A DNA stretch of 60,773 nucleotides from an uncultured Candidatus Saccharibacteria bacterium (GCA_964598205.1 CAZRBB010000006.1:1-60773), one strand, 5' to 3'; shown: positions 15,486 through 60,773, counted from the stretch's first letter. Notes: generated from the sequence alone by a model not told the origin. Program-made: numbers and translations.

Positions 15486-16292
15486 CTACCCTAGCAATTT
15501 ACTTTTGCTATTTATAAATAACGAATCTTGTTGTAATATTTTTCCGTCCCGGGGTCGCCTAAGTTGCTCAAATGATCCCACATAGCTGAACCCCATATCT
15601 TTCAAAACTAAATAAATATCATCAAATAAAGGTGCTCCTTCATAAAGCTGTATGAACGATGTTTCCAGAATTATTATTTCGGCTTGGCCAACAGTCTTAA
15701 TGCCACCCTTTATAACCTCGGACTCAAATCCCTGTACATCCATTTTCACTAAATAAGGCTTGTCTATAAAAATACTTTCCGCAAGATTGTCTAGTTTTCT
15801 TATTTCTATTACTTCCTCAAACTCACAGCGCGCAAAATCAAAAGCTTCCTTGTGCGTTAATTTCATTGGCAGGATAGATGATGATGGTGAATATTCATTA
15901 CGAAAAATCTTTTGTTCACCGTCCATATTCCCAAGCGCAAGGTGGAAAAAAGAAAAATTATTATCATTTTCGAATTTATTTTTTAGTTTTTCGAATGGAT
16001 CTTTAAGAGGTTCAAAGCAAATTTTTTTTGCCTCAGGTAAAATAAGATTTATTTTTTCAGCGAATTGGCCTTCGTTTGCTCCAATGTCTAAAATTGTTTT
16101 AATTCCAGCGCTTCTTAACCACTGATTTTGACTTATAAAATCTTGAACTTCAGCATTGTGAATATCGTTTTTTTTCTCTTTTATTTTTTTGTAGTAAGCA
16201 TTTTTAAGTTGTTCGTTTTTTGTAATTTTCTGTATACAAATTCCAAACTTAGAAAGAATATTGTTAATAAATTTGACTAATTTTTTTTCCAT
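15486..16292 (-). CDS. FkbM-family methyltransferase
   Basis: LDIGANEGQF, CFEP, LVKMDVQGFESEVIKGG. Confidence 0.92.
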   Translation of the reverse strand: MEKKLVKFINNILSKFGICIQKITKNEQLKNAYYKKIKEKKNDIHNAEVQDFISQNQWLRSAGIKTILDIGANEGQFAEKINLILPEAKKICFEPLKDPFEKLKNKFENDNNFSFFHLALGNMDGEQKIFRNEYSPSSSILPMKLTHKEAFDFARCEFEEVIEIRKLDNLAESIFIDKPYLVKMDVQGFESEVIKGGIKTVGQAEIIILETSFIQLYEGAPLFDDIYLVLKDMGFSYVGSFEQLRRPRDGKILQQDSLFINSKSKLLG

Positions 16293-45307: not shown

Positions 45308-46123
45308 CTAAGGAGTGCTTTTTTTGTTTAAATCGCCAACAAATTCTTTAATCATTTCTTCCTGAACGCTCATACTATTGGTAATAATAATAAGGTTGTC
45401 TGCTACTGTGTAGTTTAAGGAAACAGCACCGTCTTGACTAAAATTAATAAAGCGACTGTTTTTAAAATGACTGCTAGTGGTGAACTCTTTTTTACCAGAA
45501 ACTTTTACTATGTCGTATTTTTCTCCGATTAAAACGAACTTCTTTAAATCCATCACCATTTCTTTTTCCCATTCTCCAATCAAAGAAGCGTTTTGGGTAG
45601 CCATTTTATTGTTTTTAATCAAAATTGCTTCACTGGGAGCAATATCGTTTGTTCCCCAGTAGATATAAAAAGCTAAGACTTCTATATCTTTAGAAACAGA
45701 ATCTGGAAAATAAACCTTGGCTTTTTGTAAGGCATCCCAAAGCCTAATTGGTTCGTTAGCTGGGGAAAAAAACGAAACTTTTTGTAATTCTTTTTTGACT
45801 CGAGAAAAATGATTCGGCACTTCTGTGGCAAGATCTGTTTTGTCGTTTAAGGTAATTGAAAGAGAAGAAACAGAAGAAGGGGAAGAAGGATCTTCTGTCT
45901 TATTTTGAGAAAAAATGTCTTCTATTTCTCCGCCAGAGCCAGTTTTGGTGCTCCCATTAACTCCGGTTCCATTCTTTGAGGAATTAGGGGAATTGTTACT
46001 CTTTTGGTTCTTATTGGAAATAGAACCTATAACCAAAAGAAGAGCAATTCCCGCTATCCCAAAGGCTAGTCTTTTGATTACCTTTTCCATTCCCTTGCTT
46101 TTGTTTTTGATTTCTTTTTCCAT
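45308..46123 (-). CDS. Membrane-anchored hypothetical protein
   Basis: N-terminal TM helix followed by an S/N/G-rich linker. Confidence 0.7.
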   Translation of the reverse strand: MEKEIKNKSKGMEKVIKRLAFGIAGIALLLVIGSISNKNQKSNNSPNSSKNGTGVNGSTKTGSGGEIEDIFSQNKTEDPSSPSSVSSLSITLNDKTDLATEVPNHFSRVKKELQKVSFFSPANEPIRLWDALQKAKVYFPDSVSKDIEVLAFYIYWGTNDIAPSEAILIKNNKMATQNASLIGEWEKEMVMDLKKFVLIGEKYDIVKVSGKKEFTTSSHFKNSRFINFSQDGAVSLNYTVADNLIIITNSMSVQEEMIKEFVGDLNKKSTP

Positions 46124-46667: not shown

Positions 46668-47750
46668 ATGCCACAAAATAAATACGAAAAAATTAGCCAG
46701 GAACAGAAACCAGGATTAAATGCCGAGGCCACAAAAAAAATTGTACAGGAAGAAGTACCAGCTGAATTAGAATTACCATCTACAAAAGAAGTGCCAGTCG
46801 CCGACAAACCAGAGGAGATTACGGAAGAAACGCTAACCGAATCAGAATTGCCAAGCATAAAAGAGGTGCCAGTCAAAGAAGAAATGCCGGTTAATAAACC
46901 AGAAATAATTACGGAAGAAACACCCTTAAAAGAAGCGATTGAAAAAGAAGAGATGGTTGAAAATGGAGAAAAAAAACCTGATAAAGGCGAAGCGGTTGCC
47001 GAAAAAAAGGAAACCTCAGCTCAAGAGCAAGTTCTTGGTGAAATCAAAGACGAAATCGGGGAGCTAGCTAAAGCAATAGACAAAAATCCTCATGTTAATA
47101 CAAGGCCCTGGGTTAAAAAAATAGCAATTGCCTTTCTTTTAATGACCGGTGGCACCACGCTCACCACGGCGATGGATGGTTATTTAGCAAAAGCCCAAGA
47201 AGGAACCGGGGATAATGAAAAGGCAACCGTTCAAACAGATACTAGGAATTACGCCGACGAAGCTTTTTCAGATATTAAAAAAATTTTTACCGGAAGCGAG
47301 GCCGAAGCCGGTAGTAGAAATAATGGAAACGCGCTGCAAAAATCTTGGGAAAAATCACTAGCTAAAAGTATGGAAAGAATGATGGATGCACAAACCAAAG
47401 GCGCAGCTAGAAGCATGGAAAGAAACGCCGAGAGAGGGTTTAGCAGAACGGGAATGACAGTTAAGGAGGAAGACGAGGCCAGAAAGGATGCTGAAAGAAG
47501 AAGGAAGGAACAGCTAAAATATTATCAGGGAGAAAGAGGTGGTCATCAGAGAGATAGCGGAGCTTATTACAAACAGGAAGTAAAAGAAGCACAAGCCATT
47601 CAAAAGCAAAGAGTGGCCGCTCTAAAGGATTATCAGCAAGATTTAAAGAAGGCTAAAAATTCCAGAGAAATGGAAATGGCTGAGCTTAGATACCAAAAAA
47701 TGTTACAAGCAATAGATTCAATGGAGCAAATAACGAATCAAGGGCGTTGA
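46668..47750 (+). CDS. Hypothetical protein: acidic repeat N-terminus, internal TM/signal-like segment, coiled-coil C-terminus
   Basis: ELPS(T/I)KEVPV and KPE(E/I)ITEET duplicated; IAIAFLLMTGG..AKA/QE. Confidence 0.7.
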   Translation: MPQNKYEKISQEQKPGLNAEATKKIVQEEVPAELELPSTKEVPVADKPEEITEETLTESELPSIKEVPVKEEMPVNKPEIITEETPLKEAIEKEEMVENGEKKPDKGEAVAEKKETSAQEQVLGEIKDEIGELAKAIDKNPHVNTRPWVKKIAIAFLLMTGGTTLTTAMDGYLAKAQEGTGDNEKATVQTDTRNYADEAFSDIKKIFTGSEAEAGSRNNGNALQKSWEKSLAKSMERMMDAQTKGAARSMERNAERGFSRTGMTVKEEDEARKDAERRRKEQLKYYQGERGGHQRDSGAYYKQEVKEAQAIQKQRVAALKDYQQDLKKAKNSREMEMAELRYQKMLQAIDSMEQITNQGR

Positions 47751-47787: not shown

Positions 47788-49455
47788 TTAGTCAAGATAG
47801 TTTTTAACAGTGCACAAGAATTTGTCTTTTAATTTTACCTCCTGATAAGTTAGTGTCGAATTGTCTTCTCGGTTAATAATGGTGGTTTTCTCTTCTCCAA
47901 AAAGATCAATTAATGTTTTTAGGATCAAGGGGTTTGATGTGTTGGTTTTTATGATTCTTATCCCCTCTTGCTTAACTTCTTGAACGATTCTTTTAAAAAG
48001 AACTGTTAATATTTTTTTATTCCAAATTGGTCCATTCCCCCAAGGAGTCTTCAGTTTATTAATATCAAAAATATTCTCATCTTCTATTGCCACAAAATTA
48101 CCGCTTATCGAAATAATATTAGAAAATCGGACAATAAGTTTCTTTTGCTTAACTACTTCTGGAGTAATCTCTTGAACTATCTTTAATTGTTGCTCCGCTG
48201 TTAGAACATCCTCCTTTATTTTATCTGGATAAAGTAAGTGGTAAAAAAGGGGTTTGGGTGGAAGTTCTTTTTTTTGAATTATTCCCTTTATTTCTGTGGC
48301 GGCTCTTTTTCCGCAGTTTCCGTCATTGTAAGAAAATAGATTTTCGCGAATCTTTTTTCTCTCTTTGCGGTAAAAAGAATCTTGATCCAAAAGGGCTTTA
48401 TTAAGAGCCAGTGATAATTCTCCTGGACTATTAATTGTTATTACCTGGCCTTCTTTTTTTATTAACTGCTCAATGCTACCAGAATAAGTAAGCGGTCCTG
48501 ACCAGCCGCGCCGATAAGATTTAACTTTTTTAAAATCAGTATCTAGGAAATCTTTAGACCAAAAATCAGCAACCACAATTGGCTTGTCGGCCAAAATAGT
48601 ATCAAAAATAACGCTGGAATTGTCACTTAGAACAACATCGGCAATCCCTAAGAGAACTAAAAGATCGGTAGAATCATCAAATTTTAGAATTTCTTTTTGG
48701 GAGAATTTGTGCAATCTCTCCTTTTCTTCGTAGACATTGTAGTAGTGGAATTTTATTAAAACATTAAATTTACTGGTCATTTCTCTTAGATTTTCAGCGA
48801 TCAAATCAATAGAAGAGAGATCGCTATGAGTAGGAAGATAGAGCAATGTTTTTTTTAAAGGATCTAGCTGGTTTTTAATTTTTTCTATTAATTCTTGGTC
48901 TAGATTTTTAGAAAACCAGTCGTCGAATTTAGGATTACCAACAACAGCAGAAGAAGTGTATTGAGAGAAAATTGATTGGTCGCGGACTCCATAGGCCAAA
49001 ATTAAATCGAAATTTGCTTTCCAAAATCCAAAAGTGGTGAGCTCTTTGCCACAACCGTAAGGTAGGTGAATCTGTTTTCTATTTTCCCAAACACACGGAA
49101 TCTTTAGGCAACCTCTCCTCCAAACAGAAACTAGAGCTTGATATTTAGAAAAGAATCGCTCTAAAAAACTTAAGTCAAAATAGTCGTTATAATTAAGGAC
49201 TCTAAAATAAACTTTTTCTCTGACCAAGAGAGAAATTAAATTGTCTAATAGATAGGTTGGTTGTTTGACTGGGAAAAAACATCCTAAATCCACAATGAAT
49301 TCCGCTTCTTTAGTTAAATGGCGGTAAATATTTTTGTAAACATAAAATTGGAATGGGTAAACAATCACAAATCCCAAAATAGCTTGGGGGTTGGGATTGT
49401 CTTTGATTTCTTTTTGCTCAAAAGAAACCAAGCTGTTATCTTCTTTGGTAATCAT
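47788..49455 (-). CDS. CDP-glycerol glycerophosphotransferase-family protein (TagF-like)
   Basis: VGNPKFD, LLYLPTH, IKFH, DVVLSDNSSVIFD..KPIV, DGNCGKRAA. Confidence 0.85.
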   Translation of the reverse strand: MITKEDNSLVSFEQKEIKDNPNPQAILGFVIVYPFQFYVYKNIYRHLTKEAEFIVDLGCFFPVKQPTYLLDNLISLLVREKVYFRVLNYNDYFDLSFLERFFSKYQALVSVWRRGCLKIPCVWENRKQIHLPYGCGKELTTFGFWKANFDLILAYGVRDQSIFSQYTSSAVVGNPKFDDWFSKNLDQELIEKIKNQLDPLKKTLLYLPTHSDLSSIDLIAENLREMTSKFNVLIKFHYYNVYEEKERLHKFSQKEILKFDDSTDLLVLLGIADVVLSDNSSVIFDTILADKPIVVADFWSKDFLDTDFKKVKSYRRGWSGPLTYSGSIEQLIKKEGQVITINSPGELSLALNKALLDQDSFYRKERKKIRENLFSYNDGNCGKRAATEIKGIIQKKELPPKPLFYHLLYPDKIKEDVLTAEQQLKIVQEITPEVVKQKKLIVRFSNIISISGNFVAIEDENIFDINKLKTPWGNGPIWNKKILTVLFKRIVQEVKQEGIRIIKTNTSNPLILKTLIDLFGEEKTTIINREDNSTLTYQEVKLKDKFLCTVKNYLD

Positions 49456-49468
49456 ATTTTTGGGAATC

Positions 49469-50148
49469 TTAAGATTTTATTTTTTGCCTAACTTCGGCTA
49501 AATCTTGGGGAAAATCAATTTCTTTGCAAAAAGCTTTCTCAATGTCTACCGGCTTCATTTTAAAACTTTTTTTTAAAAACAAAAGTTCTAAGGCTTGTTC
49601 AAAATAATCTCCATCATTGATTCCTAAAAGTTCTTCTTTGAAAATACCCAGATCGTTCTTTTGAATAAAATAAGCTCCCAAGGACTCCCCTTCTGCTTTC
49701 TTTATTTTTTTAGAAATTCTTGCTAAATAGCCTTCATCACCAAGCAAATATTTCATTTCTTCTCTGCCACATTCCTTTTTATCTACCAAACAGGCATTGC
49801 TTTTTTTTCTAATAATTTTCCCAATAGCCCTTTTTCAAAAAAGACATCTCCGTTTAGCCAAAGAATATCTTCTTCTAATTGATTGACTCCCAAAAGAAGA
49901 CTCTTCCCCGTCTGGGTTCTGGCGTAATTTTCGTTATAAAGAAACTTTAAAAAAGAATATTGATGTGTGAATAATTCTTTTTTATAGCCAGCAATAACAA
50001 TAATCTCCTCTTTTTTAATCCCTGCCTCCACTAATCTTTCTATTTGAAAATCTAAAATAGTTTTTGATTTTTTTAGTGGCACTAAAGCTTTGGGTAGTCC
50101 GGCACCTAAACGACAACCCATGCCTGCAGCTAAAATTATAGCTTTCAT
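49469..50148 (-). pseudogene. LicC-like phosphocholine/NTP cytidylyltransferase split by a frameshift at an A8 run
   Basis: ORF 49783-50148 (MKAIILAAGMG, NGDV) and ORF 49469-49789 (EEMKY, GES, YFE, EIDFPQDL); one extra A at 49801-08 gives a continuous 226-aa protein. Confidence 0.8.
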
Positions 50149-50171
50149 TATTTTAATGTTTGTTTTTGAAA

Positions 50172-51101
50172 TTAAACAGAAGCCGAAGAAAGTAAAGATT
50201 TTATTTCTTTTTTAATTGCATTCACACAATCAGCGCAACTACCATTCTTGATTTGGTTTTTTACCAAAGCATACTTTCTAAATTCAATAAAAGCTGGCAT
50301 TTTTTTTTCGTAGACATCTTGAAAATCTTTTAACTCCCCTAGCTTAATTGGTTCAGCAAAAATACAAGGATGAATTCCAGTAGCGGAAAGACAAAAATTC
50401 TTCCCCTCTAGTCTTGAACAATTCAGGAGATCGGCTTGTTCTTTACCAGGAGGACTGATTACAACCTTCCCTTTATATTTTTCTATTTCTCCCAATAAAG
50501 ATTCGTAGACTGGTGTTAAACTTTTTCCTTGGCGCCTATTCTTGTAATCAACTTCATTTTGAAAATTAAGATTGACTGCTCCTAACGATTCAACGAAGCT
50601 AAAAAATCGGCTAAAGTCACCTTTTTTAGCTAGATTTTCTCCAGACAAAACACAAGTTACGCGCAAATTATGACCGCCTTTGGCAATTAACCTGATTGCT
50701 TCTACTGCTTTATCAAAAGAAGTTCCCTTTCGCATTTTTTCGTGTTCTTCTTTTTTATCGCTGTCTAGGCTCACAGAAAAACTAATTTCTCCTTTAGTGT
50801 TTTCTTCTATAAACTCCAGCCATTCTTTGTTAAAAAGGATTCCGTTAGTTTCAAAAAGAATATTCCATTTTAATTCCTTAATAACCCTGAACAATTCTTT
50901 TAATTGCGAGTACAAAAGAACTTCACCGCCTGTTAACCCCATGCTCCGGTAGCCCAGCTGGTGCGCTTCTTTCATTATTTTTTCTAATTTTGGAAGAGGA
51001 ATTTCTGCCTTTGATTTTTTGCGCAAACAGTAGGCACATTTTAAGTTGCACTTATTAGTTACGATTACGGCAAGGTGGGGATTTCCAAATTTAGGAGGCA
51101 T
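50172..51101 (-). CDS. Radical SAM protein with Twitch/SPASM-like tail
   Basis: CNLKCAYC, TGGE, ETNG, SLDS; C..GIHPC..CADC. Confidence 0.92.
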   Translation of the reverse strand: MPPKFGNPHLAVIVTNKCNLKCAYCLRKKSKAEIPLPKLEKIMKEAHQLGYRSMGLTGGEVLLYSQLKELFRVIKELKWNILFETNGILFNKEWLEFIEENTKGEISFSVSLDSDKKEEHEKMRKGTSFDKAVEAIRLIAKGGHNLRVTCVLSGENLAKKGDFSRFFSFVESLGAVNLNFQNEVDYKNRRQGKSLTPVYESLLGEIEKYKGKVVISPPGKEQADLLNCSRLEGKNFCLSATGIHPCIFAEPIKLGELKDFQDVYEKKMPAFIEFRKYALVKNQIKNGSCADCVNAIKKEIKSLLSSASV

Positions 51102-51117
51102 AAAAATATGTTTATTT

Positions 51118-54084
51118 TTATCTTTCGTTAAACGCTTCGGAAGGAATAGTATCTAAGAAATTAAAATAATCCCTCATTGGTCTTTCTGGAGAAAAAGCCC
51201 AACGACCTTTAATTTGCAAAAGCTTAATATCATTTAAATTAAACTTTTTAAAACTCTTTCCATTGTTCATGCTTTTAAGCAAAAAATCAACTTGCTCTTT
51301 TATACTAGAAAAACACGATAGATCTCCAGGAACAAAAGCCTGAAAATCATCTGTTGTTCCGACTAAGCCAAGTTTTAAATCGTGACCCATATTTTTTAGT
51401 TCTTCCACATTTTGAGCTTTTATCTCTTTTTCTTCTTCTATTAAATAAACAAAAAAAGATAAGCTCCCCAGCTCGGAAAGCCAAATAGGCTTATGTAGGG
51501 AAAAAGAGGAGCAATCATCGGTGATTCTTGGGGTTTCTTTTAAGGCTCTGTTAACGCAATTAAGAACACCATTTAGATAATTCTTTTTATCATTAGAAAA
51601 ATTGCTAAAAGCAAATCCCCTTTTTCTATTAAACCAGCACCCTCTTCTTAATTCTCTTTTATTGATCAAAACAGCGACTCTTCCCTTTTTAACTAAATAT
51701 TTTTTTAAAAACGGTAAGTAACCAAAGCTCCCCCGTTCATCAAAAAGTAAAAAAGGAGTTCTCTTAAAATCAGAAAAAAGAAGTGCGGTAGCCGTATCTT
51801 TGGCGAGTTTGGCAATTTCTATCTCGCTCCTTTTTAAATGTTGAAGATCTTCTTTTTCTATCTCTTCCTTTTCTTCTAGGTAATCTTCTTTTATTTCTTC
51901 TAATCCGGAATAACTCCGGTGATAAACTGGGGAACCATATTTCTTGTACTGATCTTCTTTTTCAAAAGACACTTCTTCTTTCTTTATTTGATCCAGAGAA
52001 GCTATGCAATTATAAGGAATGCCGGCGACATTGCCAAAGTTAAGCTTGGACCCACTGCCAATAACTACTAGGGCTTTTACCAAAATGATTCCATTTTTTT
52101 CAGTAAACTCTTTGGCCCTAGCAATGGTTCTTCCCTTGTTGGTTATATCATCTATAAAAATCGCTTTTTGACCCCGAAAATTACGACTGCCCTCTATTTG
52201 CAAACAAAGATCCCCCATTTTACCTTCTTTTCTAATATAGCAAACTTCTAATTTTTCTCTTGGGAAAAAAACATCGTTTAAGGCTAGAATCGCCCCCATT
52301 ATTGGGAAGCTAGAGGTTTCAAAGCCTATTAAAAGCCTAGGCTGGGACTTGATTTTTCTAATATAATCTAAAAATATTTTGGCAATCAAAGAAATCGGCC
52401 GATCGTACCCAAATATTTCCCGAACATCCATCATGAATGAATTTTCGTTTCCCGGCACTTTCTGGCCATTCTCTACTAAATAATATCTTTCATAAGTTTT
52501 AATCTTATCCGAAAATTCATCTTTTTTAACAAAATAATTAAGTTTGACTGCATACTGTCTTAAATAGTAGAGGACTTCTTTTTCTAGGGCTTCGGTGTTC
52601 CAAGGTGGAGGTAGTAATTCCTTGTCTTTATTGCTTAAGCTAAAATAGCCATTCTCTTTGTGTTCAATGTTTTTTAAGAAAAAATTGGCATTATTCTCCG
52701 CACTTCGATAATCAAAAAAACTTCTTTTCTTTTCCTTGTCTAAAAGGAAAGGAAATAAAAATAAATCTTTTCTGTAAGAAAAAATATTTACTCCTACTCC
52801 CATTTGGAAAAATGGGTTTCCTTTTTCCTCAAAGGAATAGAAAATGGGCTTATTATTTTTAATTTCTGCTGGACAACAATGAACTCCTGAACCAAGAACA
52901 ATATCTACCCCCGACTTGGTAAGAAAATCGGCAAAATCCTGATGTTTTTTTTCAATATTGGCCTCTCCTGCTCCCCAGCGACAAAAAACAATCAATGTTT
53001 TTGCCTCTTTTTTAAACTGCTCAATCTTTTCTTTGAGGTGTGGTTTTTTTTCTTCTTCTTGATATTCGGAATAATTCAAATCCCAAAAACCGATCCTACT
53101 CTGTGCTATTTCTTTGACAATTATCCCCTTACAAGCCAAGGAACTAACAGAAGGATCGTTTAGCTCTTTTATTTTTATTTTCCTATTAAAATAATCAAAG
53201 AATCGACCATTTTCTAGAACCCAGAAAAAACGATGATCGTAAAGAACAATTAGATCCACTCCAATAAAAGTTCTAAAAAAGGCGGGAGAAAAGTCTTGAG
53301 AGAAAAAATCCTGATTATTTTGATTGAAGTAACAAATAACAGAGACTGCTCTTGGGGAGGAATATTTTTCTCCTTTCTTAAAAATAGAATTCAAATAACT
53401 GACCGAGCTTTCCGTGGTTAATCCTTCCCCCAAAAAAGCCGAGTTGCTTTTTCTTATTTTAACCTTAAAAAAGTTTCCTTTTTCTAAATATTTTAAGAGA
53501 AAATATAGAGATTTATTACTATCCCCTTCTATTTTTTGAATTTTATCAAAATCAAAACTCCTAATAGCCGAAGCGCTTATTTGATCGTGAAAATAAGCAA
53601 TTTTTCTTTGCGAATAATGAGAAAAATCAATGCTGGCAACTACTAAAACCTTTTTCTTTTGCGACTCGGCAAAAATAATCTCTGCTAATTGGTCTAGTTT
53701 TTCCCTAGAGCAATCTCTTTTAAAAACCAATGGGACAATTTTTGTATTTGGAAAGTAAATTTTAATTCTACCCGTAAGTGCAAAAATGGAATGTTCTCTG
53801 TAAAAAGTTGCTTCTTCTCTTTGGCAAATTTCCCTTGCTACCAATTTTTTTGCCAGCTCTTGATCTACTTCTAGTATTCCATAATCTGTTTTAAAGGAAT
53901 CAAAAGCCGTTTGGATTTCACCATTACCCAGGCCAAAATGGTTTGGCCCCGCAATTACTACAAGGTCGTATTCTTTTTCTGCCAAGGAAACTTCCTTAAA
54001 AAAGCCATCAATCAATGACTTAGCTATTGGAATATGGTGACAAACAATCCCTCCACCAACTTGTGGCTCTAGCTTATTGTTCAT
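51118..54084 (-). CDS. Fusion: MEMO (AmmeMemoRadiSam B) - CapA-like - PRTase - AMMECR1 (AmmeMemoRadiSam A); likely start 54084
   Basis: GIVCHH, IAGPNH, REHS, ASIDFSHY; WGAGE..GVDIVLGSGVH; FIDDITNKGRT; ELRRGCW..ETPRI..FVPG. Confidence 0.8.
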   Translation of the reverse strand: MNNKLEPQVGGGIVCHHIPIAKSLIDGFFKEVSLAEKEYDLVVIAGPNHFGLGNGEIQTAFDSFKTDYGILEVDQELAKKLVAREICQREEATFYREHSIFALTGRIKIYFPNTKIVPLVFKRDCSREKLDQLAEIIFAESQKKKVLVVASIDFSHYSQRKIAYFHDQISASAIRSFDFDKIQKIEGDSNKSLYFLLKYLEKGNFFKVKIRKSNSAFLGEGLTTESSVSYLNSIFKKGEKYSSPRAVSVICYFNQNNQDFFSQDFSPAFFRTFIGVDLIVLYDHRFFWVLENGRFFDYFNRKIKIKELNDPSVSSLACKGIIVKEIAQSRIGFWDLNYSEYQEEEKKPHLKEKIEQFKKEAKTLIVFCRWGAGEANIEKKHQDFADFLTKSGVDIVLGSGVHCCPAEIKNNKPIFYSFEEKGNPFFQMGVGVNIFSYRKDLFLFPFLLDKEKKRSFFDYRSAENNANFFLKNIEHKENGYFSLSNKDKELLPPPWNTEALEKEVLYYLRQYAVKLNYFVKKDEFSDKIKTYERYYLVENGQKVPGNENSFMMDVREIFGYDRPISLIAKIFLDYIRKIKSQPRLLIGFETSSFPIMGAILALNDVFFPREKLEVCYIRKEGKMGDLCLQIEGSRNFRGQKAIFIDDITNKGRTIARAKEFTEKNGIILVKALVVIGSGSKLNFGNVAGIPYNCIASLDQIKKEEVSFEKEDQYKKYGSPVYHRSYSGLEEIKEDYLEEKEEIEKEDLQHLKRSEIEIAKLAKDTATALLFSDFKRTPFLLFDERGSFGYLPFLKKYLVKKGRVAVLINKRELRRGCWFNRKRGFAFSNFSNDKKNYLNGVLNCVNRALKETPRITDDCSSFSLHKPIWLSELGSLSFFVYLIEEEKEIKAQNVEELKNMGHDLKLGLVGTTDDFQAFVPGDLSCFSSIKEQVDFLLKSMNNGKSFKKFNLNDIKLLQIKGRWAFSPERPMRDYFNFLDTIPSEAFNER

Positions 54085-55039
54085 CTGTAAAATCAAATGA
54101 TTTTTTAGAAAAAAAGTTAGAAAAGGCCAAAGAGCAAGACCAACAATCTCCATTTACATATTCGTCTCCCGTTAAAGCTGCCCTCCTTAAGCTTCCAAGG
54201 CCGGAGACAAAAGAAAAATCAGTGGCAAAGGCCTCTTTGAATCCACAGACCACACATTCTTCCTGGTAAAGGCAGGGATGGAATCCACGAGAAGAAAAAG
54301 TTAGGGCTTTATTGGTTTCTTCTATTTTGGAACAAAAAATCTTATCTCTTATTCCGTAGGTGGTGGGAATATTTATTAAATTTTTATATTTATTACTCAG
54401 AACACTTGCTCTAGAAGAAAAATCAATCATTTCGTTAACCGTTAGGGAATGTTCGCCCCCCTTGTTTCTCCCCAGAGTAACTATTGGGGAAAAAATACAA
54501 TTCGCTGCTCCTTTTTTGATTAAAAAAAGTGCAAAATTTTCCAACTCAACAGTTGGGGGATTATTTAATCGATTAATAACCGTATTTACCGAAAAAGAAT
54601 TACCCCTTTCCTTTAAAATGGAGAGCATTTTAATTGCCTTTTTAAAACTACCAGTACCCCTAAAAAAATCATGAACCTTTTCCTTGTAGCTATCCAAGCT
54701 GACCAAGAAAGAGATCCGAGAAGCAGGGATTAGCCCGAAGAGAGGATGTTTAATGAGTTTTTCAAAGTTCATACCGTTCGTTTCTATAAAAATGGAGAAA
54801 TTTTTTAGAGCAAGAAATTCTAAAATTTCAAAGAATTGTGAGTGGAGAGATGGTTCCCCGCCGGTTAAGGAGCAAGATTTTTTTAATCCAGAAACATCCA
54901 CCTTCCTTGCAATCCTTTTAATCATTTCAAAAGGAACTTCGTCGCTCTTGGAGCTATCGGCCTTGCGTAAACAATAAGTGCAATGCAAGTTGCATTTCCG
55001 AGTTAAGATGATATTAAGAGAAGAAACGGAAAAATCCAT
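54074..55039 (-). CDS. Radical SAM protein with Twitch/SPASM-like tail (paralogue of 50172)
   Basis: CNLHCTYC, TGGEP, ETNG, SLDS..D.FRGTGSF; C..GFHPC..CWSC. Confidence 0.92.
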   Translation of the reverse strand: MDFSVSSLNIILTRKCNLHCTYCLRKADSSKSDEVPFEMIKRIARKVDVSGLKKSCSLTGGEPSLHSQFFEILEFLALKNFSIFIETNGMNFEKLIKHPLFGLIPASRISFLVSLDSYKEKVHDFFRGTGSFKKAIKMLSILKERGNSFSVNTVINRLNNPPTVELENFALFLIKKGAANCIFSPIVTLGRNKGGEHSLTVNEMIDFSSRASVLSNKYKNLINIPTTYGIRDKIFCSKIEETNKALTFSSRGFHPCLYQEECVVCGFKEAFATDFSFVSGLGSLRRAALTGDEYVNGDCWSCSLAFSNFFSKKSFDFTDEQ

Positions 55040-55092
55040 TTTGATTTTAAAATTTACTTTTGCTTTTCTATTAAAAATTATATAATCCGAAA

Positions 55093-55983
55093 ATGCAAGA
55101 AACTAATGACCAAAAAAGAATACTGGAACTAGATTTAACAAGTGTTGGCCATTTTAACGACCTTTTTTTTGGAGTTAAGGAAAAACATTTTGTCTCCTCG
55201 GCTAAACTCTTTGATTTTATTACCCAAAAAAAAGGTTCCTTGAATATTACCACAATTCTTCTTCGAGGATCTGGAGAACCAATGTTCCATCCCGATTTTA
55301 AAAAAATCGTTCGTTTTATTCAAAAAGAAAATATCGGCTTAAATATCTTTACCTTTCCTTATTTACTTAGTGATTATCAAAAAATATTAGGGGAATCATT
55401 TTCTTTGGTTGATTTCTCCTTTTATGTTTACCCCAACAGTGACTATGCCAAAGACTGGACTTTTCACTCTTCTTTTTTAAATGGAGAAAATCAATCACTC
55501 TTTAACCAAATCAGAAAACCATCTTTGTTTTATCTTTTAAACGAAAAGACAAGAGACTGCTTAGATGACTTTATTTGGGAAACAAGCAAAAGAGGTCTTA
55601 CTTTTAATATTTTACGACCAATGGAGAAAGAAAGCATTGTTTCTTCTGGCTTATTATCTAAAGCCAAGAGTCGATTTAAAAAGAATAATATTCATTTGAA
55701 TATTCAATGGGAAGATGGAAAAAATCCTAACTGCCTCTGTTCTTACTTTAGAGATCAAAGAATTTTTATGAATTGTGATAGTCAATTTTCTGTTTGCCAC
55801 TTTCTGCCTTTTTCAGACAAATACACTTTTTCGCCACTAGAAATTAAAGAAAATAATTCAGCGGCCAGTAATTTTTACTCTTTAATAAAAGAAAAAAGGG
55901 AAGAAGAGCGGAAAAAATATTTTATGAATAAAAAATATTTTTGTAGCCCTTGCGATATCTGTTTAAAGGTTTGTAGCAAGTAA
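55093..55983 (-). CDS. Degenerate radical-SAM-fold protein (no CxxxCxxC; auxiliary Cys retained)
   Basis: LELDLTSVGHF where CxxxCxxC is expected; GSGEPMFHPDF; CLC..VC..CSPCDIC tail. Confidence 0.7.
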
Positions 55984-55987
55984 AAAA

Positions 55988-58900
55988 CTAAACAAAAATC
56001 ATCTTTTTCCAAGATTTGATTTTCTTTGTTTTTTCCAAAAGCATTAGTGCCAATAAACCATAGTGACTGTATAGCCCTGTGGCTACTTGGTCTTTTGCGT
56101 TGCCAGCAAATCCTCCATTTTTAAAACAGCCTTTTAAGAATTCTTGGTGTCCTGGGTGCCTCTTTAGGTTTTCTCCTAAAATTTCTAGAGCTTGAATTGC
56201 AAAGTAAGTTGATTGAATTCCTGCTTCCTCCTTTGGAAAATGAGAAAAGCCACCGGTATCATTATTTTCACACAGATAAATAAACTTTTTTAATTCAGCT
56301 AGCTTGCTTGTAAACAAAGAGCAATCGGCTTGAGGATGCATCTTTTCTATGATTTTACAAGAAACAATCTGACGATAAACATCATAAAGAACCGTCCGGC
56401 TGTTTTTATAAGCCGAATCAAAAACCGAAAGAATTCCGCTAACTAACCTTTCTGGTATTTTTATATCTAAAAGATAGTGCAATAGAATAAGATAATAAAT
56501 TTCTACCGTCTCTCCTTCCTTTATTTTTTGCTCCAATCTTCCTTCTAAACTAGGAATAATGGCTTCTTTGGGTAAACCATACCCCAAAAGAGACAATGTT
56601 TTTATAAACCAATAATTCACTTTTTCTACAGAATGAAATCTAAAAGAATCCGTACAAAAGGCTTTTTCTTTTAAATATTTTTCTATTAAGAAAGCTAAAT
56701 AGTCCTTTTCTTTCTGACAATCCTTGTTTGTTTGTGAAGATCGAGAAAGAAGATTCCAGTAGCTAGCCAAGAAAACTAAATTAGTAAAGCTATGCCCCGA
56801 AAAACCACCGGTATCGCATTTTAAGGCAAGCACTTCTTTGATTATTTCTTCTTTATTAATATCTCTCCCTAAGAATTTATTAAACTTTATGTATTTTAGA
56901 GTGCCTGGAAAATCGTTTTTAACATTTGGTTTTGGCCATTGATGATTAATGCTTAAGCTGTGAAAATCATTGAATCTCAGTAGCGAAAGAATTTCTAATG
57001 TGGCGAGTGTTTCTTCGAAACTAAGGGTGTTTTCTTCTTTTTCTATTTTTTTGGAAAAGAATAAGAGTGACTCTGTTTTTTCTTCTTCGCTTAACGAATT
57101 AAGCTCTAAAAGAATTCCCATAATCTTTTTTTTGTTTTCTAGATCTAAACTTTCATTATAAAGAAACCTCTTTAAATAAGTTACCGTTTCTTTTTCAATG
57201 TCTTTAAAGCCGATATTAATTAAAGAAGAGACCCACAAAATTGTTGCCTCAAGAGACGATCCGCCACCAAATAATCCGTAACTGCCGCCGGAATTCAAAA
57301 AACTTTTAGCATAGTTAATAATCCCCAACTGATTTTTAGGCTTTATTCCTAGCAGATGGCAAGAAACCGTTACGCTGTGGTTGGTGGCACACCAAGGAAC
57401 ATGCCCTGGCCATTCACCAAAGCCGACTTCCCCCATTTGCAAGGAAAGAAGCCATTTCTCTGTGTCGGGAAAATCGAATTTATAATCCAACTCTTTTAAT
57501 ATTTCTAAACATTGACGAGTAGTTTCGTGGCAAGGAATCTTTCTTTTTGTTTCAAAATTTTTGTTAACGGAAAAATCTTCAATTTCTATTTTTTCTAAGA
57601 AATTTTCAATTGTCTCGGGAAGGGTGAGATTACTATCTCCTTCCTCTGCTAAATCATAACTAATTAGCGCATCCTCCTTGGCTTCTTCTTGGGGATTTGA
57701 CCTATTATAAGGGCAACCCTCTCTTTTAGCATTAACATAGCTGTCTAAAATATCCCATTTAGTAGGCGATTTTCTTTTTAATTCTTCTGGCCAAAGAAGA
57801 TAAAAAACAAAAGACTCGGCCAAGTCCTCCGCACCACTAAAAGCATAAAAACTAACGGCTATTTTTTTCTTTTCTTCAATAGTTTTTTCTTTTCCGAGAA
57901 TTTTATCCCCATCAACAAAATATTCCCAATCCTCTAAAAGCTCTTTTCCTTTTGGAATAGATCCTAAGAAAAGATGCATCATTTCGTGAGCAATGGTGGC
58001 TTTTAAATTATCCAGATCCCAAATGCGGTATCCTTCTTCCCGAAAAACGAAAGGATAGAGAGTAATTCTTTTTTCTTTAATGCTGGCCATTCCTCTAGAT
58101 AAAGGAGTCAGTCTGATTCTTTCTTCCCTATCGTAATCGTTTTCTCCAGGATAGATTGCCTTAGCACAATGATTGGGGCAATCTTTTTCTTCTATTATTA
58201 TTTCTTCTATTAGGTCTTTAAAGAGAGGGTTTAAGTTAAGAATAAGACTCAAAATATTAGCTATCTTTTCTAAATAAACATCGGTAAGTAAAACTGATTT
58301 TGATTTTACTTGAATCTTCTTTTCTTGTTTTACTAGATTAATAATTTTAAAATCTTTTAGATTTTCTGTTCTACCTTCCTCTTCTTTTTTGGAAAAATCA
58401 CCTAAAAGCAGGCAACCGGAACAGTTAAAAATTCCGCTTTTTTTAATTTTTTCTTGAATTGGCTTTAGCTTGGTGTCTACGGTTCTAGCAAAGCTAAAAA
58501 AATCAAAATCCTTATCTTCTTTATTAATAACCAAGTCTGCTTCTTCTTTGCCAAAATAAGGGCAAAAATTTAATTTGTAATTATAGTCTAAAAATAAATC
58601 AGCTCCTTCCAAGTAACTGCATAAATGCTTTCTTCCCTCTCCTCCTAAGGAAAAAAAGGTTTCTTTTTTAAACCCTTCTTTAAAAAGAAGTTTTTCCCAT
58701 CTTACGATTTGCTCCTTGGAAGGAAGATAGTTTTTAAGTCCTTCCGGAAGAGATCCTAAAAAAGAGAGATCTTTAAAAAACCAAAGATCGGGCCCAACTA
58801 ATTCCAAAAAATCATTCATTCTTACTACTGTTTCCAAAAAATTATGCTTTCCTAAATAAATCCTTACTCCTATTTTTTTCTTCCTTTTCTTAGCTTCCAT

Positions 58901-59281
58901 TAAAAAGTCAATTTTCCTTTTTAAACTGCCCTTTGATTCAAAAATATTATCCGTTCTTTTTTGAATGCCATATAGATTAACGCTAAGAAAATTTAGAGAA
59001 GCATTGTTCCAAAAAGCAAACTCCTGATCGTTTTTTAAAAAAGAAATCTCCATTTCTACTGTAAATTCGTTTTCTTCTAAAAAAGAAAGCAGTTCCTTTA
59101 TTTTGGAATAGCCCAAGGGATTATTTAGGAGCCTGATTCTTTTTAAACCATTGGCGCGAGCGCTTTTTAGGAAGCGCAAAAGCCATTCAAAATCAATTTC
59201 TATTGATTTTGGTTGATTAAAAAAATAATAATCCCTTTGATTGTTTAGGTCTAAAAGTAAAATATAGGACATTAATCCCAA
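55988..59281 (-). CDS. 1097-aa fusion: degenerate rSAM/Twitch - zincin metallopeptidase - prenyltransferase/squalene-cyclase-type repeats
   Basis: HLC..FC..CSGC; HEMMH (57974-88) plus EDLAESF; repeated xGGF/Y units (NSGGSYG, DTGGFSG, DTGGFSHFP..STYFAIQAL, NGGFAG). Confidence 0.75.
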   Translation of the reverse strand: MGLMSYILLLDLNNQRDYYFFNQPKSIEIDFEWLLRFLKSARANGLKRIRLLNNPLGYSKIKELLSFLEENEFTVEMEISFLKNDQEFAFWNNASLNFLSVNLYGIQKRTDNIFESKGSLKRKIDFLMEAKKRKKKIGVRIYLGKHNFLETVVRMNDFLELVGPDLWFFKDLSFLGSLPEGLKNYLPSKEQIVRWEKLLFKEGFKKETFFSLGGEGRKHLCSYLEGADLFLDYNYKLNFCPYFGKEEADLVINKEDKDFDFFSFARTVDTKLKPIQEKIKKSGIFNCSGCLLLGDFSKKEEEGRTENLKDFKIINLVKQEKKIQVKSKSVLLTDVYLEKIANILSLILNLNPLFKDLIEEIIIEEKDCPNHCAKAIYPGENDYDREERIRLTPLSRGMASIKEKRITLYPFVFREEGYRIWDLDNLKATIAHEMMHLFLGSIPKGKELLEDWEYFVDGDKILGKEKTIEEKKKIAVSFYAFSGAEDLAESFVFYLLWPEELKRKSPTKWDILDSYVNAKREGCPYNRSNPQEEAKEDALISYDLAEEGDSNLTLPETIENFLEKIEIEDFSVNKNFETKRKIPCHETTRQCLEILKELDYKFDFPDTEKWLLSLQMGEVGFGEWPGHVPWCATNHSVTVSCHLLGIKPKNQLGIINYAKSFLNSGGSYGLFGGGSSLEATILWVSSLINIGFKDIEKETVTYLKRFLYNESLDLENKKKIMGILLELNSLSEEEKTESLLFFSKKIEKEENTLSFEETLATLEILSLLRFNDFHSLSINHQWPKPNVKNDFPGTLKYIKFNKFLGRDINKEEIIKEVLALKCDTGGFSGHSFTNLVFLASYWNLLSRSSQTNKDCQKEKDYLAFLIEKYLKEKAFCTDSFRFHSVEKVNYWFIKTLSLLGYGLPKEAIIPSLEGRLEQKIKEGETVEIYYLILLHYLLDIKIPERLVSGILSVFDSAYKNSRTVLYDVYRQIVSCKIIEKMHPQADCSLFTSKLAELKKFIYLCENNDTGGFSHFPKEEAGIQSTYFAIQALEILGENLKRHPGHQEFLKGCFKNGGFAGNAKDQVATGLYSHYGLLALMLLEKTKKIKSWKKMIFV

Positions 59282-59754
59282 GTCAAAAGTTTATAAGAAG
59301 ACTGTCTTTCACCGAATCGATACATTCTGCCAATAATCTTGGCAATTATCTTGTCTTTTTTAATTGGACCAAAAACCCTAGAATCTTGACTCCCTCCCCG
59401 ATTATCTCCTAAAACTAAAAATTCATTTGTTCCTAATTCCCAATAAAAATTACCGAGCGGCTTATCCTTAATGTAGGATTCTTCTAGAATAGTTTTTTGA
59501 CCATCTTGTTCTATAGTAATAAAACCATCTTTATATTCTACTTTTTCCTTGGGTAGTCCAATGACTCGCTTTAACATCTTACCTCCTGTTTTTGTTGGAT
59601 TCCAAAAAAGGATTATTTCTTTTCTCTTTATTTCTTCTTCTTTCTTAATATCTCTAAAAGCAAAAAAATCACCATTATTGTAAAAAGGTTTCATACTTTC
59701 TCCGTTTACCATGTCTACAAAATACTCTTTCATTAATTCTTTAAATAGCGACAC
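59272..59754 (-). CDS. Signal peptidase I (S26)
   Basis: GESMKP (catalytic Ser), LKRVIGLP (Lys), LGDNRGGSQDSRVFG. Confidence 0.92.
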   Translation of the reverse strand: MSLFKELMKEYFVDMVNGESMKPFYNNGDFFAFRDIKKEEEIKRKEIILFWNPTKTGGKMLKRVIGLPKEKVEYKDGFITIEQDGQKTILEESYIKDKPLGNFYWELGTNEFLVLGDNRGGSQDSRVFGPIKKDKIIAKIIGRMYRFGERQSSYKLLTWD

Positions 59755-60619
59755 ACCCTCCCTGACACTCTTTGCTTATAAAAAAATCACATTCTAAGCA
59801 TCCATTTTTCTTGGCCACTTCTAATTTTTTATTTTGTACCTCTTCTTTAAAAATTAAAAGACCTTGATTCATTTTTTTCCCGATATTATTAATATTCTTG
59901 GTTATATGAAGCGCTGAACAGGGCTGGATAGTTTCCCCATCTGGATGAAAAAGAATGTTTACTCCTGGATTACAAGTTCCATAGAGGCCACAATTTCTTT
60001 TTAAGAAAGACCTTTCAAAAACAGAAAAAACACAAAGGGCAACGGGATTATCAAGAACAACACTATCCTTATAAAAAAGGATTTCGTTGGCAAAGTCAAA
60101 AAGTTTTTTACCGATTTGTCTTTCTATGGCATAGCCTTTTACGGGAGCAAAAACCACCGAAGCATTGTGTCTTTTGGCTAAGCGACCCACTTGAGAGAAC
60201 ATTGATCTTTTGTCTTCTGTTTCCACATTGTACCGAAAACAAAGATTGGTCTTATTTTGAGAATAAAATTCAATAGTTTTTAGGACTCTTTCTTTTTTAT
60301 CGTTATAAAAAATATTCTTAACATTAATCACTACTTTGCTAGGAAAAACACGCAAAGGCTCAATCCCGTTGGTTAAGACTGTGGTATTTATTCCTTTTTC
60401 CCGACAATAAATAATCGCCTGATCAATTCCTTTCCAAACAGAAGGCTCTCCCCCTAAGATGTTGACATCTGTTCCACCGAGTTGCTGGTGTTCGTCTACA
60501 ATCTTTCTAAATAAAGCCCCTTCCATTTCTTTAGGGAAGTCTTTTTTGTAAGGGTTTGTGTAACAGTATGGACAATAAGAATTGCAATTATAAGAGGGAG
60601 CAATAAGAATTCTGGGCAT
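59741..60619 (-). CDS. Radical SAM/SPASM protein (likely start MPRILI at 60619)
   Basis: CNSYCPYC, GGEP, LTNG; SPASM: GTC..PDG..QPC..CLEC..ECQGGC. Confidence 0.93.
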   Translation of the reverse strand: MPRILIAPSYNCNSYCPYCYTNPYKKDFPKEMEGALFRKIVDEHQQLGGTDVNILGGEPSVWKGIDQAIIYCREKGINTTVLTNGIEPLRVFPSKVVINVKNIFYNDKKERVLKTIEFYSQNKTNLCFRYNVETEDKRSMFSQVGRLAKRHNASVVFAPVKGYAIERQIGKKLFDFANEILFYKDSVVLDNPVALCVFSVFERSFLKRNCGLYGTCNPGVNILFHPDGETIQPCSALHITKNINNIGKKMNQGLLIFKEEVQNKKLEVAKKNGCLECDFFISKECQGGCVAI

Positions 60620-60633
60620 ATCTTCTTGTAAGC

Positions 60634-60773
60634 TTAAATACCGGAAGATCCGCAAGCTTGACTGCCTCCACAGGCTTCACAAGCTTGATCGGAAGAGCCA
60701 GCTGAACCGGAAGAGTCAGCTGCGCCTGAAGATCCGCAAGCTTGACTGCCTCCGCAAGCTTCACAAGCTTGAT
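60634..60773 (-). CDS. 3' end of a Cys/Ser/Gly-rich repeat ORF, candidate RiPP precursor, 5'-truncated: QACEACGGSQACGSSGAADSSGSAGSSDQACEACGGSQACGSSGI*
   Basis: Open from the window edge to TAA at 60634-36; all four differences between repeat copies are synonymous third positions in this frame; 14 nt upstream of the rSAM start. Confidence 0.85.
   Translation of the reverse strand, partial: QACEACGGSQACGSSGAADSSGSAGSSDQACEACGGSQACGSSGI
60644..60773. repeat. 46-bp direct repeat with 84-bp period (60644-89; 60728-73)
   Basis: GAAGATCCGCAAGCTTGACTGCCTCC(A/G)CA(G/A)GCTTCACAAGCTTGAT; two mismatches. Confidence 0.95.

Follow-up and report, generated by a model that had tools for sequence, protein, structure and literature searches.

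A small radical SAM family paired with cysteine-bearing repeat tails adjoins a divergent Memo-AMMECR1 module in an uncultured Candidatus Saccharibacteria bacterium: a candidate maturation system for protein tails

Several described systems resemble parts of a block of ten loci at positions 47788-60773 of a 60,773-nucleotide (nt) stretch of DNA from an uncultured Candidatus Saccharibacteria bacterium (CAZRBB010000006.1; hereafter the window, to which all coordinates refer unless another locus is named). In the ranthipeptide and sactipeptide systems (PapB-freyrasin, CteB-SCIFF, SkfB, QhpD) and with SuiB, as in the block, a radical S-adenosylmethionine (rSAM) enzyme with a C-terminal Cys pattern of the auxiliary-cluster type adjoins a Cys-repeat peptide, the repeated Cys motifs lie near Asp/Glu, and a protease is encoded in the cluster. 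AmmeMemoRadiSam (TIGR04335, TIGR04336 and TIGR04337), the named and uncharacterised gene neighbourhood of Memo, AMMECR1 and radical SAM in Balaji & Aravind (2007; PMC2034487), shares with the block Memo and AMMECR1-fold domains encoded together beside rSAM enzymes. MslH, the only characterised member of the CapA family, epimerises the C-terminal residue of the precursor of a RiPP (ribosomally synthesised, post-translationally modified peptide), and CapA has been proposed to epimerise poly-glutamate (PMC8179263, PMC10406935). We read the block, with a probability of roughly 0.4, as encoding a system that works in the cytoplasm and matures the low-complexity repeat tail at the C-terminus of a protein whose gene lies at the block's upstream edge. 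This reading draws on gene content, domain identities, the loss of catalytic motifs, the conservation of neighbourhoods and the recurrence of a repeat-tail neighbour, all of which were observed directly.

The upstream edge of the block carries the 3' end of an open reading frame (ORF) whose stop codon, TAA at 60634-60636, precedes the ATG of the rSAM gene rSAM1 by 14 nt. It encodes a 37-amino-acid (aa) repeat composed of a 20-aa Ala/Gly/Ser linker and the 17-aa core DQACEACGGSQACGSSG, which contains C-x2-C-x5-C. A preliminary description of the window had called this ORF a repeat precursor. A Cys-bearing repeat directly before a SPASM-type rSAM gene is indeed present; only its final 46 codons lie in the window, and the whole may be more than a short peptide, the equivalent in another locus (L010) being the tail of a 366-aa protein. 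The proposed extension past position 60773 succeeded in part: the window is one end of the 282.5-kb Joint Genome Institute (JGI) contig Ga0485169_0000002 (L004; 0 mismatches over 11,033 nt), which added 291 nt, brought the repeat units seen to at least four and then also ended within the repeat. Two frames are open across the repeat, and the public gene callers took the Leu/Gln-rich one (LQAQQVLQ..., running into rSAM1; L004 1-477, L005 7-384 and L006 3-440). The Cys/Ser/Gly/Ala frame is the coding frame, because its G+C content at third codon positions (GC3) is 0.24, close to the 0.32 of reference genes and unlike the two alternative frames with 0.69 and 0.87, and because all five nucleotide differences between alignable repeat copies are synonymous in this frame and in no other. 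Since the gene calls used the wrong frame, the Cys-bearing tail protein is absent from protein databases, and a protein-database search with the Cys-frame peptide returned no match. JGI metagenome contigs, scanned for exact matches to the pattern of the repeat core, likewise yielded none, and no NCBIfam model, including those for ACGX- and SCIFF-type peptide families, matched the tail. With wrong-frame calls and assembly breaks hiding this gene from public protein sets, genome mining may systematically overlook substrates of this kind.

The repeat could instead be GC-rich tandem DNA that codes for nothing, or an artefact of assembly where the contig ends, which would account for some of these observations: the repeat has 60% G+C within a 33% G+C region, all assemblies stop in it, a second frame is open and was the one annotated, and the Cys-frame peptide is without a database match. 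We nevertheless regard this explanation as very unlikely. Both the GC3 values and the 5/5 synonymous differences single out the Cys frame, the stop codon falls just before the rSAM1 start, and the same sequence is present in six independent assemblies, while analogous Cys tails lie beside rSAM1 relatives on unrelated contigs.

rSAM1 matched the Pfam Radical_SAM profile with 42 bits (cut-off 29.5), its CNSYCPYC motif lying at aa 12-19. Its C-terminal cysteines (C196, C216, C234, C274, C277, C285 and C289, the last four spaced C274-x2-C277-x7-C285-x3-C289) are invariant in three aligned homologues (alignment A1). The Pfam SPASM profile was not matched, and the structural model (predicted local distance difference test score 60.6) has low confidence in the SPASM region and is too poor to classify it. 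By sequence profile, the closest solved relatives were SuiB and SkfB; a fold search with this mediocre model pointed, weakly, to SuiB, SkfB and PqqE. Searches with Pfam and NCBIfam found no RiPP recognition element (RRE) or PqqD domain in rSAM1, in which only 11 residues precede the Cys triad, or in any other block protein, as the preliminary description had held. None of the curated NCBIfam maturase families (PapB, StsB, AlbA, SCIFF, ACGX and others) was passed, scores being 20-73 bits against cut-offs of 170-850; the best score of rSAM1 was 40 bits, where the cut-offs are 180-625. Unlike the ranthipeptide, sactipeptide and SuiB maturases, rSAM1 is much smaller (292 aa), lacks an RRE and reaches neither an NCBIfam maturase cut-off nor the Pfam SPASM profile. 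The presumed substrates differ as well, the repeats being 37 aa long, present in at least four copies and possibly the tail of a full-length protein, as in L010; the block, moreover, has no exporter, and its protease is an S26 enzyme without a membrane anchor.

The rSAM1 family is very small, with four full-length relatives found. A word-indexed search of 5.8 billion proteins returned two homologues besides rSAM1 itself (P0002 and P0003), and a scan of JGI metagenome contigs gave one full-length relative with 29% identity. Both intact relatives with readable surroundings (L007 and L010) lie beside a Cys-containing repeat tail. In L007 this is a protein of 92 aa whose N-terminus resembles a signal peptide (...VAQA/DS...) and whose tail reads DCFDHDCANTDGNDCASGDCGEG / DCFDHDCANTDGNDCASGDCGEGGADGGDGSE, and the L010 neighbour, directly upstream of the rSAM gene, is a 366-aa protein that ends in ~19 DCPx repeats. 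In all three tails, that of the window included, an Asp or Glu follows 0-3 residues after Cys, and PapB makes Cys-Xn-Asp/Glu thioethers with n = 0-6 (PMC9413430). A further orthologue, in L022 (36-886; 37% identity), has decayed: the CxxxCxxC segment is missing, with a remnant FIISTSY aligning to LIAPSYN, and the GGEPS motif is degenerate. This gene still adjoins the module described below and a (GD)n tail, whose visible end is free of Cys. Judged from these neighbourhoods, the conserved rSAM1-tail pairing provides the strongest argument that the tail is a substrate. rSAM1 would represent a very small new SPASM-type family without an RRE that is consistently paired with Cys repeat tails, and since the L010 tail ends a full-length protein, the pairing would extend RiPP-style chemistry to protein tails.

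The same searches yielded matches that we set aside. Eleven further JGI rSAM matches covered the N-terminal core only and had no Cys-repeat neighbour. The sole match among GTDB species representatives (24%), in a Spirochaetales multi-rSAM cluster, is accompanied by an unrelated Tyr/Thr-rich peptide and was judged to belong to a different system. In this uncultured Spirochaetales metagenome-assembled genome (L009, 1625-8593), rSAM/SPASM and pseudo-rSAM genes surround a 68-aa ORF ending YSKTTYYYYTTYYY, an arrangement suggestive of a distinct RiPP cluster directed at Tyr/Thr, one that may be undescribed. The 366-aa protein of L010 (3742-4842) has an RxxxxH (HEPN-like) motif, a CxxC...CxxC zinc-ribbon-like segment and weak PADLOC matches to PDC-S64/DUF3644. 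The rSAM1 relative there lies at ~4880-5743, with a transposase nearby, on a contig of higher G+C content, and the pair may be a mobile two-gene cassette.

The central protein of the rest of the block is a 1011-aa fusion of Memo, CapA/PGA_cap-like, phosphoribosyltransferase (PRTase) and AMMECR1 domains (Table 1), an assignment already made in the preliminary description. The first three domains were recovered with Pfam, and the Memo orthologues in L026 and L022 matched TIGR04336 with 94 and 64 bits, respectively. AMMECR1 went undetected by Pfam and NCBIfam in the window sequence itself. A homologue with 42% identity, P0006, did match Pfam AMMECR1 (PF01871, 28.7 bits, cut-off 25; TIGR04335, 19 bits, cut-off 99), and with a model of the window domain the top Foldseek matches were the AMMECR1-family structures 1zq7, 1vaj and 1wsc (E 3e-8 to 4e-7). 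By this modelling the C-terminal domain is confirmed to have an AMMECR1 fold, of a very divergent kind. Where the family has RGC, proposed to be its catalytic motif (PMC2034487), the window protein has RGF and P0007 has RGY; RGC is kept in P0006, P0014 and P0123 and in the L022 orthologue. The Memo-fused domain resembles the MslH/CapA epimerases in matching PGA_cap, and weak matches to the MslH model were obtained with the CapA parts from L022 and L026; unlike these proteins, MslH has no Memo fusion, and the window protein matches only the C-terminal half of PGA_cap.

Compared with AmmeMemoRadiSam, the block and its relatives contain Memo-CapA and AMMECR1-PRTase fusions, all four domains being joined in one protein in the window, and the AMMECR1 domain is divergent with its RGF motif. 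The rSAM enzymes are MoaA/SPASM-like with C-terminal Cys extensions: TIGR04337 was not among the best 25 of 70-80 NCBIfam matches for rSAM2 and rSAM3, which were led by Rv1681, MoaA, SPASM maturases and ArsS. Pseudo-rSAMs, an alpha-alpha toroid, peptidases, a TagF-like enzyme, a nucleotidyltransferase and repeat-tail proteins are added. Judged by its domains, what remains of the block beside rSAM1 is an expanded, fused and divergent relative of AmmeMemoRadiSam with added PRTase and CapA-like domains. The earlier statement that no cluster with this enzyme set is known therefore has to be narrowed, since the Memo, AMMECR1 and rSAM core has already been named (PMC2034487). The rSAM1 family, the fusion architectures and the association with pseudo-rSAMs, peptidases, TagF-like enzymes and repeat-tail proteins appear new.

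The association with the module is limited to one Memo-CapA subfamily, the module being absent from the contexts of P0008, P0021 and P0053, members of the wider Memo-CapA family. Wider-family Memo-CapA fusions, such as that of L031 (2159-3646), often have an N-terminal hydrophobic anchor and stand in unrelated contexts, so the wider family is heterogeneous and probably partly extracytoplasmic.

The make-up of the fusion protein also bears on the idea that Memo, AMMECR1, rSAM and PRTase together modify a nucleotide or an RNA base, as for the canonical triad, and that the repeat proteins are unrelated to them. Base modification has been predicted for the triad, and the AMMECR1 fold falls within the RAGNYA class, which has many nucleotide- or nucleic-acid-binding members (PMC2034487). 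The PRTase domain, of orotate type with the loop-like motif DDITNKGRT for phosphoribosyl pyrophosphate (PRPP), would fit such a role. The block, however, contains no RNA-binding or tRNA-modification domains, the proposed catalytic Cys of AMMECR1 is absent from the window protein, and the peptidase, pseudo-rSAM and repeat-tail neighbours would be left unexplained. We therefore hold base modification to be quite improbable.

Co-occurrence of the genes in other genomes, named beforehand as a test, was found in L022, in L026-L028, in JGI sample 3300075153 and in L030. The L022 contig (Logan SRR30681656) begins within a repeat ORF, ...GDGDGDGDGA*, followed by the decayed rSAM1, a 605-aa pseudo-rSAM fusion (g605), a toroid encoded as a separate 549-aa protein (31% identity over 538 aa), the orthologues of rSAM3 (g323, 44%) and rSAM2 (37%), PRTase-AMMECR1 (41%), Memo-CapA (26%) and a homologue of w271, a membrane-anchored protein encoded close to the block (g282, 41%). 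L026-L028, from three metagenomes, begin with a membrane protein that has a C-terminal tail of the GDSDNPDSDDSSTTGGTT type. It is followed by a 243-aa cytidylyltransferase, a TagF-like protein (47%), PRTase-AMMECR1-like (38%), Memo-CapA (31%), an rSAM enzyme (34%), a 615-aa protein joining a pseudo-rSAM and an active rSAM domain, a w271 homologue (35%) and a peptidase M10. One contig of JGI sample 3300075153 encodes PRTase-AMMECR1, Memo-CapA, an rSAM enzyme, a 249-aa protein and M10. A second contig of that sample, its linkage to the first unproven, encodes the rSAM1 homologue P0002, an ORF of 80 aa, a further two rSAMs of which one is inverted, a tetratricopeptide repeat (TPR) protein and IspD and short-chain dehydrogenase/reductase (SDR) genes, then a 596-aa gene without Pfam assignment. 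In L030 (63% G+C), the gene of a 322-aa protein with ~40 consecutive Asp-Thr repeats (1228-2196) stops 6 nt short of PRTase and AMMECR1-like genes that are not fused; the next gene has TPR repeats.

A low-complexity repeat protein rich in acidic or hydroxyl residues stands beside PRTase/AMMECR1 genes in 4 of the 5 readable loci (window, L022, L026 and L030), against a background in the examined loci of about 1 strongly low-complexity ORF in 50 genes. Pseudo-rSAM proteins and the w271-type membrane-anchored protein usually accompany the module, and some of its loci also have an alpha-alpha toroid, a zincin peptidase, or a TagF-like enzyme and a cytidylyltransferase together. Because this content has been retained despite different fusions, shuffled order and inversion, the module appears to be functionally coupled. 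The recurrence of a repeat-tail neighbour also argues, less strongly, for the tails as its substrate.

The rSAM1-tail pair and the module are separable, since L010 and L026 each keep one part. The block could accordingly be two adjacent systems, a RiPP-like cassette (tail, rSAM1 and S26 peptidase) and an independent Memo-AMMECR1-rSAM pathway that, with its PRTase, CapA-like, cytidylyltransferase and TagF-like enzymes, synthesises or alters a small molecule or an envelope polymer with phosphodiester linkages. This would suit the pair standing alone in L010 and the module of L026-L028, which has the nucleotidyltransferase and the TagF-like protein without rSAM1 or toroid; it would also suit the plus-strand gene that divides the block into separate transcription units, the glycan-rich window (a 1341-aa multi-glycosyltransferase, a Wzt-type ATPase and a UDP-glucose dehydrogenase) and the TagF orthologue being, at 47%, the best-conserved protein between the window and L026. 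Repeat-tail genes, however, also flank loci without rSAM1 (L026, L030), L022 retains a decayed rSAM1 beside both module and repeat tail, peptidases (M10, HExxH, S26) recur in the module, and the only known activity in the CapA family acts on peptides (PMC8179263). A division into two systems seems to us possible and rather doubtful.

The TagF-like gene is intact and, at 57 bits (PF04464), well above the family cut-off; it scored far below the equivalog models (TarF, 29 bits against 550). Its L026 orthologue, a 566-aa protein with 47% identity over 541 aa, is encoded directly beside the Memo/AMMECR1 module. The LicC/IspD-type nucleotidyltransferase gene next to it is split by the frameshift into ORFs of 121 and 106 aa, in the JGI and Logan assemblies as in the window; the intact 243-aa L026 orthologue is 51% and 43% identical to the two halves. 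The frameshifted gene could be a pseudogene, a phase-variable switch or a case of programmed slippage. The same two families stand adjacent and co-oriented in the cytidine diphosphate (CDP)-alcohol pathway of teichoic acid synthesis (TarI/IspD-like with TagF/TarF/TarL). Unlike that pathway, the block scores far below the equivalog cut-offs and has no linkage-unit, flippase or membrane-acceptor genes.

A conserved TagF-like and IspD/LicC-like pair in the window and L026 would be expected if the whole block served cell-envelope synthesis, making a teichoic-acid-like or phosphoribosyl polymer or a lipid, with the repeat proteins being surface proteins encoded nearby by chance or mere anchoring acceptors. 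Other features point the same way: IspD, SDR and the 596-aa gene on the P0002 contig, the w271-family protein flanking three loci, and the toroid of prenyltransferase/terpene-cyclase type. In L024, moreover, the gene after a PRTase-AMMECR1-like gene (1999-2745) weakly matches CR2 and CR4 of Stealth, a sugar-1-phosphate transferase family, which is a second hint tying the module to phosphodiester transfer. Yet no membrane-embedded transferase, flippase or polyprenyl-phosphate enzyme is encoded in the block, all of whose proteins look soluble by hydropathy, and the modules of L022 and L030 lack TagF-like and nucleotidyltransferase genes. Since this view would also fail to explain why rSAM1 is paired with Cys repeats in particular, we consider an envelope role for the whole block unlikely. 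Among the rival explanations, two adjacent systems thus rank first, followed by an envelope polymer, nucleotide or RNA-base modification and, last and unlikely, a non-coding repeat.

Between rSAM1 and the module lie genes whose products may process the tail or bind it. The S26 peptidase (Pfam, 85 bits) matched best to ordinary signal peptidase I (TIGR02227, 90.9 bits, cut-off 47), and its motifs GESMKP, KRVIGLP and GDNRGGSQDSR align with Gram-positive signal peptidase I structures. No N-terminal membrane anchor was found, the maximum hydropathy over 19 residues being 0.31 and the ORF not being extendable upstream. Because it is anchorless and retains the catalytic Ser and Lys, it looks like a dedicated cytoplasmic processing enzyme. 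The nickel superoxide dismutase maturation protease SodX is likewise an anchorless S26 enzyme encoded beside its presumed substrate; the window peptidase differs in its best match and in falling below the cut-off of TIGR02754 (46.6 bits, 3.5e-12; cut-off 63.25).

The 1097-aa protein that follows has three parts, which are separate genes in L022. Around its HEMMH motif the sole profile hint was SprT-like (E = 0.17). The toroid matched PF00432 (Prenyltrans) with 42-47 bits (cut-off 26.5) and, weakly, the beta subunits of geranylgeranyltransferase II and farnesyltransferase in the PDB; inspection of alignment A3 revealed no clear zinc-ligand (Asp/Cys/His) or DxDD motif. The word-indexed search returned no homologue of the whole protein but itself, and its PDB sequence matches were marginal. 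The fusion of a toroid and an HExxH region beside a Cys-bearing tail is loosely analogous to eukaryotic CaaX processing by a prenyltransferase beta toroid and the HExxH protease Ste24. In contrast to CaaX processing, no zinc-ligand pattern, alpha subunit or isoprenoid-diphosphate source was identified in the block, and the last Cys of the tail lies 6 residues from the C-terminus, not 4.

L022 g605, in which both pseudo-rSAM domains are fused on one strand, shares 33% identity over its C-terminal half with the 296-aa pseudo-rSAM. rSAM2 and rSAM3, paralogues with 30% identity, are, as judged from their Cys triads, active rSAM enzymes. The latter is 44% identical to its L022 orthologue and 34% identical to the 333-aa rSAM of L026.

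Within the favoured reading, a cytoplasmic system maturing the repeat tail, the part that we hold probable is that rSAM1 modifies the Cys cores of the tail and that the S26 peptidase, perhaps with the HExxH domain, cuts the linkers. rSAM1 would act on the C-x2-C-x5-C cores, and by analogy with ranthipeptides and sactipeptides its likeliest chemistry would be to join Cys through thioether cross-links to nearby residues, including Asp/Glu. The S26 peptidase, and possibly the HExxH domain, would then cleave the Ala/Gly/Ser linkers; the linker would be cleavable throughout, because its all-small residues meet the -3/-1 rule at every position. Such cleavage would either set free a number of identical cores or shorten the tail. 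We propose more tentatively that the other block proteins (Memo-CapA-PRTase-AMMECR1, rSAM2 and rSAM3, the pseudo-rSAMs, the toroid, the cytidylyltransferase and the TagF-like enzyme) act on the same tail. The two pseudo-rSAM domains may serve as substrate-binding scaffolds, and candidate steps include epimerisation of the tail by the CapA/MslH-type domain, a PRPP-dependent step on the tail and the addition of a phosphodiester-linked group to tail Ser/Thr. Thioether formation, lipidation and phospho-decoration, as raised in the preliminary description, are steps that we infer.

Several points weigh against a tail-maturation system. Every chemical step in it, as well as the tail being the substrate, is something we infer from the sequences. 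Envelope polymers are the usual products of TagF-like and IspD-like enzymes, and bases are the usual targets of PRTases. Memo has reportedly been predicted, by Burroughs et al. in 2019, to modify nucleotide bases or isoprenoids. For AMMECR1, Aravind's group predicted RNA-base modification (PMC2034487), and rSAM2 and rSAM3 also have generic matches to small-molecule rSAMs such as MoaA, HpnH and viperin. All six public contigs with rSAM1 stop inside the repeat, so the N-terminus of the tail protein lies beyond them. The rSAM1-tail pair of L010 lacks the module, the L026 module lacks rSAM1 and toroid, and on the 2.7-kb contig of L024 a PRTase-AMMECR1-like gene stands without a repeat gene. The loci are few, and as the window and L022 share background synteny, the adjacencies seen in these two are not independent evidence. 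Finally, because the cytidylyltransferase is frameshifted and the AMMECR1 domain (aa 842-847) has lost the conserved Cys of its family, with RGF for RGC, part of the pathway may be inactive or impaired in the window.

Eukaryotic MEMO1 and AMMECR1 are linked to disease and biochemically unexplained, and we know of no substrate for either family. The repeat-tail neighbour, together with a CapA/MslH-type domain fused to Memo, would offer a concrete and testable substrate candidate for both. A much bolder form of the proposal, which we hold to be improbable, is that the Memo-AMMECR1-rSAM system is fundamentally a machine for modifying protein tails, making stapled, epimerised polyanions decorated with phosphoribosyl or polyol phosphate from repeat tails. 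If so, the acidic or hydroxyl-rich tails would become a protein-based counterpart of teichoic acid, and the repeat-tail genes would be the first to identify the class of substrate.

Table 1. Positions of the block genes, their domains and other features of the window.
Feature	Position (nt)	Residues (aa)	Strand	Remarks
Repeat-tail ORF, 3' end	60634-60771		-	...QACEACGGSQACGSSGAADSSGSAGSSDQACEACGGSQACGSSGI*; 46 codons, cut by window and contig end
rSAM1, radical SAM	59741-60619	292 in total	-	CNSYCPYC and C-terminal 7-Cys SPASM-like pattern
Soluble S26 (signal peptidase I family) peptidase	59272-59754		-	Ser20 (GESMKP) and Lys62 (KRVIG) kept
Three-part protein	55988-59281	1097 in total	-	Pseudo-rSAM, HExxH region and alpha-alpha toroid
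Part 1, pseudo-radical-SAM	58382-59281	1-300		Weak rSAM match, no Cys triad
Part 2, HExxH region	57974-57988	432 (HEMMH)		EDLAE 52 aa downstream
Part 3, prenyltransferase/terpene-cyclase-type toroid	55988-57610	558-1097		PF00432
Pseudo-rSAM	55093-55983	296 in total	+	No CxxxCxxC; C-terminal CSPCDIC
rSAM2	54074-55039		-	CNLHCTYC, Cys-bearing C-terminal extension; Pfam Radical_SAM
Fusion protein	51118-54153	1011 in total	-	Memo, CapA/PGA_cap-like, PRTase, AMMECR1-fold
Memo domain	53494-53988	56-220		AmmeMemoSam_B TIGR04336, 87 bits, cut-off 26
CapA/PGA_cap-like domain	52834-53184	324-440		Pfam PGA_cap, only C-terminal half of profile matched
Type I PRTase domain	52045-52389	589-703		Orotate-PRTase type, PRPP-loop-like DDITNKGRT
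AMMECR1-fold domain	51154-51825	~777-1000		RGC motif reads RGF
rSAM3	50172-51101		-	CNLKCAYC; Pfam Radical_SAM
LicC/IspD-type nucleotidyltransferase	49469-50148		-	Split by frameshift at A8 run 49801-49808
TagF-like CDP-alcohol phosphotransferase	47788-49455		-	Intact; Glyphos_transf PF04464, 57 bits, cut-off 22
w271, membrane-anchored protein	45308-46123	271 in total	-	Homologues flank module in L022 and L026
UDP-glucose dehydrogenase	25678-27024			Part of the window's glycan genes
Wzt-type ABC ATPase	16277-17716			With Wzt_C domain; glycan-export type
Protein with three GT2 and GT4/GT1 domains	9273-13298	1341 in total		Large glycan locus

The count of ten loci and their close spacing, no gap or overlap exceeding 53 nt, were as given in the preliminary description; the ten are not co-oriented, nine being on the minus strand and the 296-aa gene on the plus strand. 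The latter converges on the 1097-aa gene, leaving 4 nt between the two, and diverges from rSAM2 across an AT-rich spacer of 53 nt, so the block comprises at least three transcription units. Most of the earlier domain calls held in profile, homologue and model checks; those requiring correction were the LicC-like gene, which is frameshifted, and the precursor, of which only the ORF end is present. Besides L004, another two JGI assemblies and three from Logan contain the block; the source samples include JGI 3300045131, 3300044987 and 3300044951 and SRR12261224. A PADLOC scan returned only generic viperin-type rSAM similarity, an Rfam scan gave no match, and promoter-like sites were not in excess. 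Terminator-like sites numbered 19 against 12.6 expected, none of them at a gene boundary.

The 271-aa w271 protein had no Pfam match; its homologues in L022 and L026 are 41% (g282) and 35% (the 249-aa protein) identical. Between the TagF-like gene and the w271 gene lies a gene for a 360-aa protein (46668-47750, plus strand) that begins with an acidic repeat rich in Glu, Pro and Thr, has a single hydrophobic segment and ends in a charged C-terminus; it had no Pfam match and no counterpart in L022 or L026. The earlier statement that the window has no ATP-binding cassette (ABC) exporter is not strictly right, given its Wzt-type ATPase of the glycan-export type. A 268-aa ORF beside this ATPase (segment 15486-17716) may be its permease.

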